In this document: positions 3,001 through 32,002 of the stretch, one piece after another
Position numbering within the stretch: position 1 is the stretch's first letter
How the letters are laid out: each line of letters begins with the position of its first letter
Notes under the pieces: model-generated
Database searches by the model: none
The model's input: only the letters and a program-made list of their open reading frames with translations
Told to the model about the DNA's origin: nothing
Made by a program: the position numbers and the translations under genes
Origin: a virus
Lineage: Duplodnaviria; Heunggongvirae; Uroviricota; Caudoviricetes
DNA: 64,000 nt
Virus record (IMG/VR): IMGVR_UViG_3300045988_149282
Location: 32,001-96,000 of that record
Direction: 5' to 3' (one strand)

Positions 3001-6000
3001 CGAAAAAGGCCGATCAGTCGGCAGTCACTACGCTGACAGGTCGGGTAGAGAAGACGGAGTCCGGTCTGACGGCGGCGAACAGCAACATTACGTCGCTTAG
3101 CAGCTCTCTGAGCCAGCAATCCAAACGCGGCGCTAATCTGCTTCCTGATGGCACTTTTGAAAGCTACGCGGTTGGCCATAATCTATCAAATAATCGCGTT
3201 ATCGTTACCACTGATGACTCTCACGGTGGAAATAAGTGCATCCGTGTGACGCGTCCGAACGACTACAACGCCAACGCAACAGATAACAGCGATAACCATA
3301 TTTTTAGCGGATTTCAGGTTCGCGATAACGCAGTGTTCTACATGGAGTGCTGGGTTAAGCTGGATGCCAATAGCACAGCCATGGCCGAGAACACGCAGAT
3401 CTCTATCGGTTTGTCGCTCCAGTATCAGGATAACTCGTGGCAGTGGCCGGCAGTAACTAAAGCTGCGAAAGATCTGTCTACAGCTCAATGGACGAAGGTT
3501 TCTGGTTACCTGAAATCAACGAAGAGCGGTATTAAGCAGGCAATGGTGAGGATTTCTATTCCTAACGTTAGCAGCGTTAAGGCGGGAAACTCATTCCTTA
3601 TTGATGACCTGGTCATTACCGAAGTAACTGATGCCTACAATGCGCAAAGTACAGCAGATGCTAACGCCAATGCGATTTCGACACTGGACTCGACCGTTTC
3701 CCAACAGGGCGACCAGATCACCAGTCAGGGTAACAGCATCACCAAACTGACAAATGACCTGGCAACGACCAATAACAACGTCAGTAAAAAAGCGGATCAG
3801 AGCGCTTTAAGCGTGTTGTCCGGGCGCGTCGATCAAACAGAATCGGGCTTATCCTCTGCGAATAGCAGTATCACTGCGCTTAATTCATCTGTACGCGCAG
3901 GGAATGCGACAAGTGGCGATTTGATTAGCAACCCGACATTTGACCCAGAGTTTAGTCAGATGGGCTTCACTGTGGTTCCCAGCTCGTCTGAGGGCGTGCC
4001 AGCCAATTGCCCATACGCTTATGTTGCACGCATTGCGGCTCGCGACCATCACCCAAATTTTGCTGCTATTCCGGCGACATTGGGGGATGTCTATGAAATG
4101 TCTGCTCTCGTCGCGTGTGGCACTGGCTCCGCTGATTTCAACCTGTATCTCGGAACCGCAACACGGCCAAGCGGCAGCGTGGGCGCGCCTCTGTCATCTG
4201 GCGGCAACCGCAAGGCGTCGGCCACATGGCAGCGAGTAACCTGGCGTTTCAAAATTACTCAGGGGATTGTCGATCGCGGCTTCTTCCGTCCATTCCTGCA
4301 AATCAACCAGTCCAGCCCGTTCGGCACCGTCTGGTATGTGACCGACTGGCATCTGCGGAACGTAACCGACTCCTCCAAAGTTCAGGATTCTCTCGATGCT
4401 ACGGCGAAAGCGGTTGATTCGCTGACCTCTACGGTAAATCAGCAGGGGGAGAATATCTCCAGCATTGGTACACGTACTACCAATCTTGAGAATAATTTGA
4501 GAACAACAAATGCAAACGTTGCTCAAAAAGCGGACGCCAATGCTCTGACGGCACTGACCAACCGTGTTACCCAGACCGAAAAAGACATTAACTCAACGAG
4601 TTCTTCTGTCACGAATCTGAACAACAAGGTTGATGCAATTTCTGTCGGCGGTACAAACCTGATCAAGAACTCCGGCGATATGACCGGCTGGTCGAACGTT
4701 GTCAGCGATACGTATCGTGGTAACGCGGTAATTGGCGCAACTGTAAAAGCCGGCTCCGGTTACAGGGATTTGCGGGAAATCACGCTTGAGTCGCCGGTCG
4801 ATGCAGGTGAGTACGTTTACAGCTTCTATGCGAAAGGCGGTGTTGCTGGCCAGATTATGACGGCGTTCTTCTACAATCCGAACACTACAACGTCTATCGA
4901 GACCAGCCAGGGTGCGAAGGGTAACAACAGTGATGGCCGTGCGCAGTTCACGCTGACCACTTCATGGGCCCGCTATTGGGTTAAGTGGAAACAGACACCT
5001 ACCACGAGTACCAAGCGCCTGATTCTGTGTCGTATCGAGAGCAATACCTCCAAAGACCAGACGGTGTACATCAACAGTCCGAAGTTTGAGGTAGGTAACG
5101 TTGTTTCCGACTGGAACGAGTCTCCGTCTGATAGTGCCAGTGCGTCGGCTGTGGACTCGCTGACAACGAAAGTGAATCAGCAGGGCACTTCCATTAGCTC
5201 TATCGGAAATCGCACCACATCGTTGGAAAACGGGTTATCGACAGCTCAAAACAACATTGCCAAGAAGGCTGATGCTTCTGCATTGCAGGATCTCCGGAAC
5301 ACGGTGACATCTCAGGGTGATGATTTAACCGCGGCGAACAGCAGCATTACCAGCCTGCATGCCTCGATGAACCGTCGCACTGTGTTTACTGTCACTGCAC
5401 GGGGTAATGGCAACAGCGTTACCCATGGGGTGTTTGATGAAAGCGGCAAGAATCTGTTTACCCCTGGTCGCAGCTGGGCGCTGGTCACTTTTGCAAAACA
5501 CAGCGACGGATCAACGGTGATTGCGACCTCCAAAACATACGATGTCTTTGGCAGCGCGAATAATGGCGCCACGATGTCGGCTGATATCGAGGCACTGGCC
5601 AGTGGGACTTACGTTTGCGTCCTGACATTCGATGAGCCAACTGGCAACCGAGGTAAGGTGTTGTCTGCCCTGGAATCTCTTGGTGGCACTTCCGAAGTCG
5701 TTAACTCTCTGCCGTATCGTGGCGCCTACATTCTCCTTGGCCGCAAAGGTATGAAGCCGGGCGATGGTCTGGAACTGCGTGCGCCAACCGGTGGCGACGG
5801 CACCGCCCACATTTCGACCTCAGTCGAGTTTGTGAACGGGGTAATGATGGGGCTGGGCGCCGCTGGTGGTGTGATGATGAAGGCTGATGCGAACGCATCT
5901 GCAATTACCACGCTCCAGAATACAGTGAAGACCCAAGGGGATAATATTGACTCCCTGAGCTCCTCGACAACAGCGCTGGAAAACAGCCTTGCGTCCAGTA

Positions 6001-22863: not shown

Positions 22864-22938
22864 GATGGTGTAGCTCAGCGGTAGAGCAGTTGGCTGTTAA
22901 CCAACTGGTCGGTGGTTCGAATCCACCCACCATCGCCA
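22864..22938 (+). tRNA. tRNA-Asn (anticodon GTT)
   Basis: Manual cloverleaf: acceptor GATGGTG/CACCATC, D-arm GCTC-AGCGGTA-GAGC, anticodon loop CTGTTAA, T-arm GGTGG-TTCGAAT-CCACC, encoded CCA. Confidence 0.85.
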
Positions 22939-22943
22939 ATTTA

Positions 22944-23030
22944 GGGGAGTTAGTCCGTAGAGGTAGCGGTGTAGACTGTAAATCTACTGTCATGGCGACT
23001 CGGGTGGTTCGACTCCATCACTCCCCACCA
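22944..23030 (+). tRNA. tRNA-Tyr (anticodon GTA), long variable arm
   Basis: Acceptor GGGGAGT/ACTCCCC, anticodon stem-loop GTAGA-CTGTAAA-TCTAC, long variable arm, T-loop TTCGACT, encoded CCA. Confidence 0.8.
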
Positions 23031-23034
23031 AATT

Positions 23035-23110
23035 GCCGGTTTAGCTCAGTTGGTAGAGCGCCTGCCTTGTAAGCAGGATGTCAGCGGTTCGAGTCCGTTA
23101 ACCGGCACCA
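23035..23110 (+). tRNA. tRNA-Thr (anticodon TGT)
   Basis: Acceptor GCCGGTT/AACCGGC, D-arm GCTC-AGTTGGTA-GAGC, anticodon loop CTTGTAA, T-loop TTCGAGT, encoded CCA. Confidence 0.8.
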
Positions 23111-23404
23111 ACATAATATTGAGAACATTGGCGTAACGGGTTCATATCCCAATTTATGAATATAATGTTGCGTTGCAGCGTGACAACCAGTGTTCTCAAC
23201 ATTGTGGTGAATGCACAGGCTGATGTGCGACGTAGAAGCAAGCGGATGAACTGCCTGAAGGCCGCTAACGTAGGCAATGCCGGAGATCAGCACCGGCCAT
23301 CACAATTTGGCTCTCTTGCAACAGCATAACGCTGAAATACGTCCAACCTGGTGCGGTCTGATCACCCGCCGTTAGCTCCACGAAACGGAGCACACAACAC
23401 AATT

Positions 23405-23491
23405 GGAGAGTAGGGAGCATGGTGCTCAAGCGGTCTTGAAAACCGTCCCATTGTGCAAACGATGATGGTTCGATTCCATTACTCTCCGCCA
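23405..23491 (+). tRNA. tRNA-Ser (anticodon TGA), long variable arm
   Basis: Acceptor GGAGAGT/ACTCTCC, anticodon stem-loop GCGGT-CTTGAAA-ACCGT, long variable arm, T-arm GATGG-TTCGATT-CCATT, encoded CCA. Confidence 0.7.
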
Positions 23492-23494
23492 GAC

Positions 23495-23570
23495 ACAGCG
23501 TTGAGCGGTTTGGCCTTTTAATCAACCAGATTAAGACTCCGCTAACATAAACCAGACCGCTCAACGCTGT
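23495..23570 (+). other. Long hairpin (19-bp stem, about 38-nt loop) immediately after tRNA-Ser
   Basis: ACAGCGTTGAGCGGTTTGG pairs with CCAGACCGCTCAACGCTGT with one wobble position. Confidence 0.5.
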
Positions 23571-23645
23571 GATAGACAATTACGGCAGACGTTCTTAACC
23601 ATAGCTTGCTAACATCCTAGCAACACTTTTTTCAGCGCAAAATTC

Positions 23646-23668
23646 AAAGGGGCTTCGGCCCCTTTTTT
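23646..23668 (+). terminator. Rho-independent terminator
   Basis: AAAGGGGC-ttcg-GCCCCTTT followed by a T-run; its 5' half is duplicated at about 24553-24581. Confidence 0.8.
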
Positions 23669-23784
23669 GATTTGTTGACACTTAGTTATATTCACGTATC
23701 GTTTTATCGCTTTGATCCGAGGCAGCGTTAGACTGCCTTCATGTTCCTGATTAGATCGCAGCAGTTAAACATGGAGACAAATTA

Positions 23785-24339
23785 ATGAAGAAGTGCCATC
23801 TCAATATTTTCGCATCTCTAATAATTGCGTTAACACTAACAGGGTGTAACGAATCTGAAATAGATGAATTAACGTTAATAGGCAAAGATAAAAGTGAACT
23901 TGAACAAAATTATAAAGCCCAATTCAAGAAGCTAACACAAAATGTTGAAGTGTTTATTCTTCAAGATAAAAATAGTCCGACTGAAAAAGAACCGCATACG
24001 AATGGCAACCTGATCGACGGAAAAGTCGAAATGTCATTAACCAGTAATGTTGGTAAGTATACATTCATCCAGATAAGTGAAATGCTGACAAAGGAGTACG
24101 GAAAACCCGTTGCTACAAAAGATCGTGTTTTTAACAGAGAAGCAGTATCTGGCATGGACTGTATTGAAACTAAAACTTGTGGAGCTGGTAAATATTATGA
24201 AATCTTTCGAGGGAAGGATAGATTGATTATGGTGTCAAACGGTGCCGGTCTTTTACACGAAAAGGAAGGTGTAACACTACTCACCATCACCGATAAACAA
24301 TTTAAATTTTCTCGTTTAGAAGAAGATAAAATAAAATAA
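23785..24339 (+). CDS. Lipoprotein (184 aa) in AT-rich islet; candidate superinfection-exclusion/lysogenic-conversion factor
   Basis: Signal peptide with lipobox LTGC; GGAG ribosome-binding site; coding DNA looks AT-rich by eye; flanked by about 29-bp direct repeats. Confidence 0.6.
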   Translation: MKKCHLNIFASLIIALTLTGCNESEIDELTLIGKDKSELEQNYKAQFKKLTQNVEVFILQDKNSPTEKEPHTNGNLIDGKVEMSLTSNVGKYTFIQISEMLTKEYGKPVATKDRVFNREAVSGMDCIETKTCGAGKYYEIFRGKDRLIMVSNGAGLLHEKEGVTLLTITDKQFKFSRLEEDKIK

Positions 24340-24344
24340 TGACA

Positions 24345-24372
24345 GGGGCGTATACGCCCCTATCTAAAATTT
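24345..24372 (+). terminator. Hairpin after lipoprotein gene
   Basis: GGGGCG-tata-CGCCCC followed by an A/T-rich tract. Confidence 0.45.
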
Positions 24373-24590
24373 GACATTAAACATATATTGCATCTGGTAT
24401 CAGCAATTTTTGTGCGCTATGTAAGTCCTTACCTGCAATCAGTCTCATAAATATCGGATTTTACGTAGCGTACCATCGTTACAGCAAGCATCAAATTATT
24501 CACTGACATTTATGCGCTGAAAACAGCGTTACTTACCGTAAAATAACAATTTTCAGCGCAAAATTTAAAGAGGCTTCGAATCTGCACAAC

Positions 24591-25886
24591 CTATTGTGCG
24601 TACTCGCCCAATTTTAATGTTTCACGCTTATATTCATCAACTATCTCACATGATTTAATATAGATATGGCACAATAGGTTATCACTATCATCATTATCGT
24701 TTATTGCCATAAGTGCCAACTTTTTCTCATATTCATCGATCGCATCACTCAACTGATCACCTGTAATTACATCTGACTCACTCGAGAAATATAACTGCCC
24801 AAGATTTACCGCATTTTTTCCAGTTTTTCTTTGCTCTATGTAATTTTTAATCATATCCTTCACATCCTTTTCACTACTCAGTATTTCACTTTCGAAATGG
24901 ACATGCTCTGAAATCGACGCGACTCTGCAACCGATCAAACGATGAATATAGTCATCAATAGACGTAACACTATCATTAGCTTTTTTTAGTGCTTCATCAA
25001 AAATGCTCTTTACCTCATTTGGCAAATTTTTAAAATAATCATCAATTAAACCAGATAATGGTGTTTGGTAGTTCATTAATACCGATGAAGCAACTTGCGG
25101 ACGACGAGCCACCCAGATTTCTTTGACTTCAACTTGAGAATAATATTCCTTAATCACGTTCCAAAAGTATTTTAACATCTTGGTTTTAAATATTTTATCA
25201 AATCTATCCTTTATAAATAGCTCTACTTCAGGCATGCTTGAATAAGCATCATCAAAGAATATTTCATCTTTGAAAAAATCATATTTATTTAATAAAGCAT
25301 ACAGTTTTTTTGAATCCAGCGGTTCACGAGAATCGATGTCCAATCCAAAAACTGCAATAACCAACTTCATTTGCGGTGGTATTTTTCCACTCAATTGAAT
25401 AATATATTCCATTTTTTCATCAAAACAATTTCCATCTATGTAAAATCGGTTATCTACATAGACTAATATATTGGTAATATGTTTTATGTACTGAATAACC
25501 TCATGCTTTCTTACCAATGGATAAAAAAACGAATGCATTTCATTTTTATTAAATTGTTTTTTTGTCTGTTCAATGATTGGTATGACATTATTGTACAACT
25601 CATCATGCTGATTTAATAAAGTGTCAAACCATTCTTTGAAAGAATTTTTTCTCATCTCAATCAATGAATCGGTAGTTATCCTAACGGCCTCCAGTGCTGC
25701 CTTTGCACTTTTTCTTGCTTCATAGGCGTTCCACGCTGTTGCACAAAAAGCCGCTGTCGTTATAAAACTACTCAATACAGCAATTTGGTCTGTAACCTTC
25801 CAATCTTGAAATGGCTCAAGTAGTAAACCTAAAAACAAAATTATTATGGAAAACATTAGAATTGCAACAGAAATAAAAACAGGCAT
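24591..25886 (-). CDS. Membrane-anchored protein (about 431 aa, two N-terminal transmembrane helices plus large cytoplasmic domain) of unknown function; candidate abortive-infection/exclusion protein
   Basis: Antisense ORF in AT-rich DNA; GAGAG ribosome-binding site supports start at M12 of the ORF-track product (25886); two hydrophobic helices within the first 60 aa; no catalytic motif recognised. Confidence 0.55.
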   Translation of the reverse strand: MPVFISVAILMFSIIILFLGLLLEPFQDWKVTDQIAVLSSFITTAAFCATAWNAYEARKSAKAALEAVRITTDSLIEMRKNSFKEWFDTLLNQHDELYNNVIPIIEQTKKQFNKNEMHSFFYPLVRKHEVIQYIKHITNILVYVDNRFYIDGNCFDEKMEYIIQLSGKIPPQMKLVIAVFGLDIDSREPLDSKKLYALLNKYDFFKDEIFFDDAYSSMPEVELFIKDRFDKIFKTKMLKYFWNVIKEYYSQVEVKEIWVARRPQVASSVLMNYQTPLSGLIDDYFKNLPNEVKSIFDEALKKANDSVTSIDDYIHRLIGCRVASISEHVHFESEILSSEKDVKDMIKNYIEQRKTGKNAVNLGQLYFSSESDVITGDQLSDAIDEYEKKLALMAINDNDDSDNLLCHIYIKSCEIVDEYKRETLKLGEYAQ

Positions 25887-25981
25887 GTATGCTCTCGTAC
25901 TTACCATTGTTAGTTGCATTAAATATTAACTAAATTAAGTTGTGATTAACAGGCAAGTTTACGATGTATTGCAGACATTAA

Positions 25982-26002: not shown

Positions 26003-26058
26003 TTTTATAGTAATATTTATTTTCTGGTTAAGTAACACATAATTATTATGAGGTAAAC

Positions 26059-26304
26059 ATGACTATCGTTATCTACGGACGAGATAACTGCTCATATTGC
26101 AAACGTGCGGTCGAGCTGGCGAAACAACTAAAGGGACACGGCTATGGTGATTATGAGTACATCGACATCACCACTGCCGGTATCGATAAGGAAAAACTTA
26201 GCGAAATTGTTGGCAAACCGGTAGAGACTATCCCCCAGGTACTGATCGATGGCCAACCGATTGGCGGATACACAGAACTGGCTGCATACGTCACCACTCT
26301 CTAA
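26059..26304 (+). CDS. Glutaredoxin/NrdH-like redoxin
   Basis: CSYC active-site motif near N-terminus; 81 aa thioredoxin-fold length. Confidence 0.75.
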   Translation: MTIVIYGRDNCSYCKRAVELAKQLKGHGYGDYEYIDITTAGIDKEKLSEIVGKPVETIPQVLIDGQPIGGYTELAAYVTTL

Positions 26305-26332: not shown

Positions 26333-26514
26333 TTCCCACCAAACTCACGCTTGGTTCCCTTAAAATTCAAAAAACAACGGCTAAATGATTCCATACCTAC
26401 TATGTATGGAATCATTACTGAAAATGAGTTACTTTTACTCTTGATCCTATAAGAATCTATGCCTAATATACTGTTTACTTATACAGTGAATCGGCGTAAC
26501 TCGGTGATTGTCAT

Positions 26515-27618
26515 ATGAAAAATAGCTTTGACAGAGCACGCGCTGCGGAGAACACCTCAAAAGAGGCGATTGAGTATCTCGAAAGAGCATCTCAAATGCA
26601 GGCCGTTATGATCTCGCAGGTCAGCAATGACATGAGATTCTCGGACGCATTCATGTTATTCACTCGCTTATCTCTGCTGATAACAAGACGTCGGCCAGAG
26701 ATCGCTGTTCATTGTATTTTGATACATGTTTTGCCGCACATTGCCGATGTAAAAGTAAGTGACATTAATAGGTTCATGGTGAACCAACTGGTCAACCCAC
26801 TAATACTGGATGGCAAAATTGTTATGGGCCGCCGCGTTTTCTCTCTGATGAAGCAGTTCCTTAGCTGGTGCGCCTTCCAGGGGATGATAGACGTGTCACC
26901 GTTAAACGATATGTCACTAAACAAAGTTGCCGGTGGCGCAAAGCCTACACCTCGCGAGCGGAAGCTGACCGACGCAGAGGTATGGGTGTTCTGGAATATA
27001 TGGGACTACTTCAATGTGTGCGCTGGTACAAAATGGGCGGCCAGGCTGTGTCTTGTATCCGCAAGACGACCTGACGAAGTACTGCGGGCTAAAAAAAGTG
27101 AGTTCAATCTTAAGCGTGGGGTTTGGAATCAAGGCAAGAGGAACAAATCTGCCCGTGAGCATTCTCTGCCTTTAAGCTCATTAATGCGCACTTGTATTGA
27201 AGAGTTGTTCGAATATGGTAAAGACAGCCAGTGGCTCGTGCCTTCGAATAAAAAAATCGGGAAAGACCTTCCTATGTCTAAAGTGGCAATAGCCCAGGCA
27301 TTACGTCGTATTCTGGAACGACCAGAACTGATGGAGCTTGAGCCATTTACACCCCGAGATTTGCGCCGTACTGCGCGTAGTTACTTCCCAGCATTAGGCA
27401 TAAGCCAGGAGGTATCACGTAAAATCATGAACCACAGTCTTGAGGGGATAGATCGGGTCTACGACCGGCACGATTATATGGACGAGATGCGAGACGCCTT
27501 AGAAAGTTTCTCGACGTACATCGCATCAATCGTAGAGCAACCGGATTTAGACGAAATTGACCACAAATTTAAGGGAGATCGTCTATCAACAGAGCTTATT
27601 CGTGTAAATTTTTCATAG
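26515..27618 (+). CDS. Tyrosine site-specific recombinase (integrase/resolvase family)
   Basis: C-terminal catalytic signatures in order: ARRPDEVL (Arg), HSLP, RDLRRT, HSLEGIDRVYDRHDY (His and Tyr nucleophile). Start uncertain; weak ribosome-binding site at 26515. Confidence 0.75.
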   Translation: MKNSFDRARAAENTSKEAIEYLERASQMQAVMISQVSNDMRFSDAFMLFTRLSLLITRRRPEIAVHCILIHVLPHIADVKVSDINRFMVNQLVNPLILDGKIVMGRRVFSLMKQFLSWCAFQGMIDVSPLNDMSLNKVAGGAKPTPRERKLTDAEVWVFWNIWDYFNVCAGTKWAARLCLVSARRPDEVLRAKKSEFNLKRGVWNQGKRNKSAREHSLPLSSLMRTCIEELFEYGKDSQWLVPSNKKIGKDLPMSKVAIAQALRRILERPELMELEPFTPRDLRRTARSYFPALGISQEVSRKIMNHSLEGIDRVYDRHDYMDEMRDALESFSTYIASIVEQPDLDEIDHKFKGDRLSTELIRVNFS

Positions 27619-32000: not shown

Positions 32001-32002
32001 TC

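Follow-up and report, generated by a model that had tools for sequence, protein, structure and literature searches.

A terminator and its apparent fragment flank a predicted lipoprotein gene in the cargo slot of a putative Escherichia coli phage-plasmid

We analysed a 64,000-nt stretch of a Caudoviricetes genome (IMG/VR record IMGVR_UViG_3300045988_149282, positions 32,001 to 96,000; hereafter 'the window', with coordinates counted from its first letter) at a locus where a small gene for a predicted lipoprotein lies between two copies of a 29-nt direct repeat. Along the plus strand the locus comprises the end of a tRNA cluster, an intact terminator containing the first repeat copy (copy A), the lipoprotein gene with its own hairpin, a non-coding spacer, the second repeat copy (copy B) and a convergent gene, ORF442, beyond which lies the glutaredoxin gene grxA (Table 1). 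A preliminary description had read the two copies as the footprint of a moron, that is, of an accessory gene inserted by duplication or recombination at a terminator. As we argue below, the repeat is probably the scar of a mosaic recombination event that joined two modules within a hypervariable cargo slot extending from the terminator to grxA.

The segment 23400-24800 is 100% identical to a stretch of the 113-kb plasmid MF554642, and the window as a whole is closely related to ~110-kb non-mobilizable E. coli plasmids and to the Escherichia phages Cyrano and CMS-2020a. The relatives are typed as rep_cluster_488 or IncFIB, non-mobilizable, and those that are annotated carry DNA ligase, a tRNA cluster, GrxA, a tyrosine integrase and CobT. 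Judged by these similarities, the window is part of a ~110-kb E. coli phage-plasmid, which we provisionally place in the SSU5/pHCM2 group on the basis of the literature.

Table 1. Coordinates of the features at the locus, given in window positions
Feature	Position	Strand	Remarks
tRNA-Ser	23405..23491	+	ARAGORN, Rfam; last gene of the tRNA cluster
Repeat copy A	23629..23657	+	backbone terminator from its 5' flank through left arm and loop; E. coli-type relatives have the identical sequence
Intact terminator	23646..23668	+	A-tract, 8-bp stem, TTCG loop, T-run; apparently bidirectional; left border of the slot
Promoter-like site (sigma-70)	23675..23702	+	TTGACA-16-TATCGT, matches 10/12
Leader hairpin	23721..23737	+	GGCAGC-GTTAGA-CTGCC; 16/17 positions invariant across six aligned alleles
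Lipoprotein gene	23785..24339	+	184 aa; predicted signal peptide, lipobox LTG/C, Asn at +2; phrog_15156 (unknown function)
Second hairpin (t2)	24341..24364		between convergent genes; -15.0 (+) and -19.6 (-) kcal/mol; z -4.7 and -5.2
Non-coding spacer	24365..24549		185 nt; only in plasmids with the exact window arrangement
Inverted partial copy	24510..24533	-	complementary at 20/24 positions to backbone 23619-23642
Repeat copy B	24550..24578	+	apparent remnant of the terminator's left half, with 2 substitutions; ORF442 stop codon 12 nt away
ORF442	24591..25919	-	442 aa, convergent; predicted N-terminal hydrophobic helices and all-alpha body; phrog_18168 (unknown function)
grxA (glutaredoxin)	26059..26304	+	backbone homology back at 26027-26066, right border of the slot

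The direct repeat and the fate of its hairpin

Copy A (TTTTCAGCGCAAAATTCAAAGGGGCTTCG) and copy B (TTTTCAGCGCAAAATTTAAAGAGGCTTCG) agree at 27 of 29 positions and are spaced 921 nt apart, start to start. In 30 shuffles of the region 23000-25200 the top direct 29-mer match reached 19-22 of 29 positions, and a degenerate 20-nt pattern representing the 3' part of the repeat finds two sites in the whole window, copies A and B, against 0.03 expected. No further copy of the motif is present elsewhere in the 64 kb when up to three mismatches are allowed, leaving one intact copy and one fragment. A chance likeness of two AT-rich intergenic stretches, in whose favour only the low GC content of the region can be cited, is thus of negligible probability: it is refuted by the shuffles, by the pattern search and by the colinearity of copy B with the terminators of relatives, which we describe below.

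Copy A is part of the terminator that closes the tRNA transcription unit; this terminator is intact, with the sequence AAAGGGGC-TTCG-GCCCCTTT and a T-run behind it, and folds at -15.3 kcal/mol. The copy lies 138 nt beyond tRNA-Ser, and the repeat is therefore not tRNA-derived; an Rfam search over the region returned tRNAs only. Copy B has neither the right arm nor the T-run, the similarity between A and B ending precisely at the hairpin loop, and its region folds at -3.2 kcal/mol, a value that does not surpass that of shuffled sequences; we predict that copy B currently has no terminator function. The structural observations of the preliminary description thus hold, with coordinates that were 1-3 nt off: the ~29-nt repeats exist, the hairpin is intact at the first copy and broken at the second, and the copies flank the lipoprotein gene together with its own hairpin. 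The inverted copy reported nearby is also real, and longer than had been noted.

This inverted patch aligns with a score of 16, where 200 shuffles averaged 10 and did not exceed 15, and spans 10 nt of backbone upstream of copy A that are not found in copy B. A third, degenerate direct copy in the spacer (24377-24417 versus 23595-23638) was rejected as not significant, since 31 of 500 shuffles scored equally.

Together, the inverted copy and copy B form a long minus-strand hairpin just 3' of the ORF442 stop codon, and copy B could conceivably have been kept for a function, as part of a 3'-untranslated-region hairpin that would stabilise or terminate the ORF442 transcript. The hairpin begins ~27 nt past the stop codon and the minus strand of 24500-24595 folds at -26.3 kcal/mol (z -2.65, 3 of 200 shuffles being as good), but this z-score is modest, no U-run follows the hairpin, and t2, located 225 nt further on, is the better minus-strand terminator. 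The available instances are near-identical, so covariation and conservation are uninformative here, and we consider a retained function of this kind quite unlikely.

A variable cargo slot between the terminator and grxA

The origin of copy B is suggested by a comparison with CP124394 (L005), positions 4230-5445 of which align with window positions 24550-25751 at 67.6% nucleotide and 55% amino acid identity. In L005 the repeat lies inside a single intact terminator, which is followed by a convergent 420-aa homologue of ORF442. The first aligned letters are those of TTTTCAGCGC; the alignment then shows a 14-nt gap in the window opposite GCCCCTTTTTTGTT of L005 (the right arm and T-run) and goes on into the 3' end of the ORF. 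Because copy B and the 3' end of ORF442 are colinear, but for this 14-nt gap, with the L005 terminator and homologue, we interpret copy B as the vestige of a backbone terminator that once adjoined an ORF442-type gene; the arrangement of terminator plus ORF442-type gene persists in ~20 plasmids and 7 IMG/VR contigs. Copy B is 93% identical to the terminator and ORF442 is 67% identical to its L005 homologue, values that fit copy B as former conserved backbone sequence.

The ORF442 family is highly divergent and its members directly abut the terminator in relatives; for the window allele itself there are no relatives between 100% and 56% identity. Its structure model is all-alpha (pLDDT 73.6), with no PDB fold match at E<=0.001, and PADLOC returned no match to the protein.

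In pairwise comparisons with seven relatives, backbone identity is 97-99% up to ~23669, the end of the T-run, and is regained at 26027-26066, near the grxA start codon, while the interior of the slot is unrelated or only distantly related to the window. Slot GC content is 28-37% as compared to 42-50% in the backbone. Scans of IMG/VR and metagenome contigs with the terminator sequence yielded 33 further contigs. Over plasmids, IMG/VR and metagenomes together, the sequence behind GCCCC(T)n is of at least 11 different kinds, with a few junctions located inside the T-run or directly past the right arm. The cargo includes a family of minus-strand genes of ~410-444 aa with hydrophobic N-termini, to which ORF442 belongs, unrelated minus-strand ORFs of ~300 aa and, in Cyrano, a gp49-family protein. 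In three IMG/VR and metagenome contigs (L034, L049 and L050) the first ORF past the terminator is an AbiH abortive-infection gene (Pfam E=2.6e-62; PADLOC AbiH). A PhoH-like ORF follows the AbiH gene in the same three contigs.

The lipoprotein gene is itself one of the slot's cargo genes, and in most of its other carriers a 262-aa gene lies within 31-40 nt of it, forming an apparent operon. This downstream gene (positions 4983-5771 in NZ_CP024264, L003) matches the PADLOC PDC-M68A and HNH-endonuclease effector models (E=6e-25), and together the two genes may normally constitute a candidate defence unit. Where those carriers have the 262-aa partner, the window has the hairpin, the spacer, copy B and ORF442. 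A Logan contig (SRR29183797, L014) carries a recombinant lipoprotein gene: over its positions 4835-5816, compared with window 23629-24600, it is 98-100% L003-like to ~24066 and 98-100% window-like thereafter. Homologous exchange between slot alleles is thus ongoing.

A separate observation concerns the Citrobacter freundii plasmid NZ_OW849211 (L007), which carries two intact UUCG-loop terminators at 2616-2649 and 3099-3132, 483 nt apart and identical at 29 of 34 positions including the flanks. The pair bounds an unannotated insert, downstream of which lie a 242-aa ORF and the lipoprotein gene, and is a second instance, within this slot, of a terminator duplicated where modules meet.

The product of gene 23785-24339 is a predicted lipoprotein. 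Its N-terminus, MKKCHLNIFASLIIALTLTG followed by C, meets the lipobox [LVI][ASTVI][GAS]C, and L18, T19, G20 and C21 are invariant in 13 homologues, as are two further cysteines, 126 and 132. The family is small (16 clusters, 61-99% identity) and enterobacterial wherever a source is named. We found no match for the protein in Pfam, NCBIfam, PADLOC or PDB sequences, and no relationship to Plp of P1. The AlphaFold model (pLDDT 46.7) is too poor for use, and a profile search of 1.8 billion proteins gave a weak FMN_bind-type resemblance that, at an hhalign probability of 9%, is a lead only. The envelope proteins Llp, Cor and Bor offer analogues, and because of this analogy and of the defence genes in sister alleles we would infer a role in surface exclusion or host conversion.

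The lipoprotein gene is preceded by a promoter-like site, the -35 and -10 columns of which are kept in all six aligned lipoprotein alleles while the flanks vary; promoter-like sites in the region are as many as shuffled sequence would be expected to give. The leader hairpin may be a regulatory or stabilising element. The leader around it varies between alleles and includes a 12-nt indel. Downstream, the t2 tail is richer in U on the minus strand, and t2 probably ends both transcripts, that of the lipoprotein gene and that of ORF442. Across 23600-24600 GC content is 35-37%, versus 42-51% in the flanking backbone.

Upstream of the slot, ARAGORN places four tRNA genes (Asn, Tyr, Thr and Ser) on the plus strand at 22864-23491; tRNA-Tyr is present in the window and not in Cyrano. 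Directly after tRNA-Ser, positions 23494-23571 hold a 20-nt inverted repeat (95% complementary, 38-nt loop) that is kept, with substitutions, in the Citrobacter relative (L007 2465-2547) and may be a processing element or a tRNA remnant. Between tRNA-Thr and tRNA-Ser, 23117-23398 is a second small variable patch in which homology to relatives is lost too; it holds an inverted repeat that pairs 23109-23131 with 23187-23209.

The probable joining of two modules

The second repeat copy was found in window-type sequences only: in 3 PLSDB plasmids, 5 of 5,426 complete E. coli genomes, 3 IMG/VR contigs and about a dozen Logan/ENA contigs. All instances have the same flanks, with the 271-nt junction region 99.6-100% identical, and since the junction is identical in every instance, the composite of the two modules has a single origin. 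Every contig with the exact ORF442 (or a 431-aa call of it) is colinear with the window and carries both copies along with the lipoprotein gene. Of the E. coli records that matched, 335 in all, ~20 have a lipoprotein allele (5 of the window type, ~14 of the L003 type and 1 of a third type); in the remaining ~315 (~94%), which have one copy and no lipoprotein gene, the match does not go beyond the terminator. The IMG/VR and metagenome scans gave the same picture, with the gene missing and a single copy present in all but 3 contigs.

Single-copy variants lacking the gene, which the preliminary description had proposed to look for, are thus the majority; they hold other cargo, however, and no exact empty-site or deletion allele was found in PLSDB, the E. 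coli genomes, IMG/VR or Logan/ENA. In the nearest 'empty' form the downstream ORF homologue is just 55% identical to ORF442, and no allele among the E. coli records, IMG/VR and metagenome contigs joins the backbone context of copy A to the ORF442 flank. A pattern for the right-hand junction of copy B gave zero matches in JGI metagenomes and GTDB genomes, a result that is uninformative as the window type is absent from these collections.

In the E. coli plasmids of the L003 type the lipoprotein gene directly follows the terminator and a second copy is missing; the same holds for a clade with a backbone of ~76% identity, sampled from one E. coli plasmid and metagenome contigs; this clade also has a Citrobacter member, in which extra cargo lies between the terminator and the lipoprotein gene. 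Because these other carriers are without the second copy, we read the repeat as the join of two cargo modules and not as the boundary of a lipoprotein mobile unit. Homology between the window and the ~76% clade is unbroken over 23533-24330 at 75.7%, versus 76.8% for the backbone. The window allele is ~72-77% identical to each other independent allele, while those are 80-98% identical among themselves (the recombinant L014, at 86.7%, is left out), a pattern that a long-resident, co-diverged window allele fits at least as well as a recent import.

These comparisons bear directly on a simple moron insertion, whereby the terminator-ORF442 arrangement would be ancestral, the lipoprotein cassette the newcomer and the 29 nt a duplication made upon its arrival. 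Such an insertion would suit the low GC content of the cassette and its possession of a promoter-like site and a hairpin; it would also suit the lack of the gene in ~94% of the E. coli relatives and the many relatives in which ORF442 homologues adjoin the terminator. It is at odds, however, with the gene following the terminator without a second copy in both the L003 type and the ~76% clade, with the near-equal divergence of gene and backbone in the latter, which suggests long residence, and with the lack of an empty site carrying the same ORF442 allele. We therefore regard it as possible but doubtful. Moreover, it predicts the same structure as a mosaic scar and differs in direction only: either the lipoprotein module was set upstream of ORF442, or ORF442 with its 29-nt tail was set downstream of the lipoprotein module, two histories that structurally amount to one event. 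What survives of the moron proposal is that copy B is apparently terminator-derived and records a recombination event at the terminator, and that the gene is moron-like in its promoter-like site, hairpin and base composition; the lipoprotein gene is not necessarily the newcomer.

We thus favour a mosaic-recombination scar as the probable explanation of the repeat. The window holds, in tandem, two modules that are found apart in relatives, and their junction contains a direct 29-nt and an inverted 24-nt patch, both from one and the same backbone site. The ORF442 module would have carried along 29 nt of the terminator that it once adjoined (flank, left arm and loop), yielding copy B; in the parent with ORF442, one breakpoint would have been located shortly before the terminator. 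The joining would have been illegitimate, by a non-homologous or microhomology-based route, and its partners either two variants that shared a cell and differed in cargo or sister genomes of one concatemer. A more speculative route, suggested by the adjacent inverted patch, would be template switching at a replication fork stalled by the hairpin. The 14-nt right arm and T-run may have been deleted later, or the cargo junction of the parent may already have been located in the loop, which is plausible because the junctions known from this family fall at various points between the right arm and the end of the T-run. Once formed, the composite could have spread via homologous recombination in the conserved flanks.

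Several points weigh against this explanation. The exact loss of the right arm and T-run requires either a second event or an unobserved parent. The ancestor had to be deduced from a distant allele, because no parental form was found in which an ORF442 allele of more than 56% amino acid identity adjoins a terminator, whether whole or broken. The source of the 185-nt spacer was not found by DNA searches of PLSDB, the complete E. coli genomes and a phage collection, and the spacer has no translated similarity to the genes behind the lipoprotein gene in relatives. Finally, the instances are near-clonal, and their conservation is uninformative as to a function of copy B or of the inverted repeat.

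Nothing in the sequence indicates a dedicated mobility mechanism for the repeat-bounded unit, as the motif does not recur across the window, both a transposase and terminal inverted repeats are missing, and the integrase lies outside the unit; the lipoprotein gene is the sole gene of the 921 bp. A transposon or insertion sequence was rejected in the absence of a transposase ORF and of inverted repeats at the inner edges, the 29-bp duplication also exceeding the 2-14 bp of such elements. A reading of the copies as attL and attR was likewise rejected: the integrase gene (26515-27618) is outside the unit and has a palindrome of its own, and the repeat is not tRNA-derived. This palindrome, AATGATTCCATAC-CTACTAT-GTATGGAATCATT at 26385-26417, has perfect 13-bp arms around a 7-bp spacer, lies ~100 nt upstream of the tyrosine integrase gene and is kept in all but two of the compared relatives. 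By its lox/dif-type architecture it is probably a resolution or recombination site of the integrase.

It is very unlikely that the copies are sites of active cassette exchange, with the 921-bp unit being mobile either via mini-circles, as proposed for the promoter early stem-loops (PeSLs) of T4-type phages, or via att-like action of the integrase. As in PeSLs, copy A presents a terminator followed directly by a promoter-like site (PMC2839356), many cargo junctions cluster at the terminator hairpin, the Citrobacter relative has its two near-identical intact terminators, and the integrase gene is 2 kb away. The window, however, holds one intact copy and no dispersed family, copy B has neither stem nor promoter, the integrase is outside the repeat-bounded segment and the lox-like palindrome beside it is unlike the repeat; furthermore, the composite has a single origin, and the collections that hold the window type yielded no deletion product. 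A broader proposal, which we rate as unlikely, is that the terminator hairpin is more than a passive border: recombination would occur preferentially at this site, perhaps stimulated by the hairpin, and would drive the exchange of cassettes in this family of phage-plasmids as a low-copy analogue of the T4 PeSLs, the slot serving as a dedicated exchange point for exclusion and defence genes. Were this the case, copy B, the inverted patch and the duplicated terminators of Citrobacter would be its by-products, and the lipoprotein, the ORF442 family, AbiH and the HNH-like protein the genes exchanged.

Significance and comparison with known systems

From the repeat one can read how a phage-plasmid that is clinically common in E. 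coli came to have two accessory modules side by side. The repeat reveals no new mechanism, and the most useful by-product of the analysis is the definition of the slot: a compact interval, from terminator to grxA, that samples many cargo genes, some of them recognisably anti-phage (AbiH and the HNH-like PDC-M68A candidate), and that can serve as a convenient typing marker for these phage-plasmids. Because of the anti-phage genes among the cargo, the lipoprotein and the ORF442 family are reasonable candidates for superinfection exclusion or defence. Keyword checks of papers found no published description of the slot, of its terminator border or of the repeat.

Phage-plasmids, those of the SSU5 supergroup included, have hotspots for defence and other cargo (Pfeifer et al. 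2021, PMC7969092; bioRxiv 10.1101/2025.09.12.675607). The present element resembles SSU5-supergroup phage-plasmids in its size of ~110 kb, its non-mobilizable type and its phage genes, tRNA genes, DNA ligase, CobT and integrase, and its slot resembles such hotspots in placing accessory genes, here including AbiH and nuclease-like cargo, near a tRNA locus.

The morons of temperate phages, of which HK97 gp15 is an example (Juhala et al. 2000, summarised in PMC3594210), share many traits with the lipoprotein gene: a single accessory gene with a promoter-like site, a hairpin terminator and a GC content below that of its surroundings, present in a minority of close relatives of a temperate element and encoding a predicted envelope protein, as do Bor, Cor and Llp. 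Unlike a moron added plainly between two adjacent genes, it occupies a multi-allelic replacement slot; no allele has the flanks joined without cargo, and the gene may be an old resident. On sequence-level grounds the lipoprotein gene thus has most of the marks of a moron and lacks that of plain addition, because the locus is a replacement slot.

PeSLs consist of a ~100-bp stem-loop with promoter motifs, number ~50 per genome, and are a proposed route of module shuffling through recombination (Arbiol et al. 2010, PMC2839356; PMC4122927). The present locus is similar in that a stem-loop terminator and a sigma-70 promoter-like site mark the border of variable ORFans, and in that repeat copies flank a gene that is polymorphic between relatives. 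It differs in having one intact copy and one 29-nt fragment with neither stem nor promoter, with no mini-circles or repeated use of the homology in evidence.

The closest parallel lies in the sharp homology breaks at the terminator and at a start codon, with many alternative modules in between, and in the apparent spread of modules by homologous recombination in conserved flanks, as in the L014 recombinant. Mosaic junctions at gene boundaries are explained in the Hendrix model by illegitimate recombination followed by selection, and 'boundary sequences' are known from lambdoid phages. What sets the present locus apart from other such mosaics is the short fossil of flanking backbone that was carried along, of a kind rarely preserved, from which a module's earlier neighbour can be recognised. 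Ordinary gene-boundary mosaicism, with a rare preserved fossil of a former neighbour, is the best fit among the known systems.

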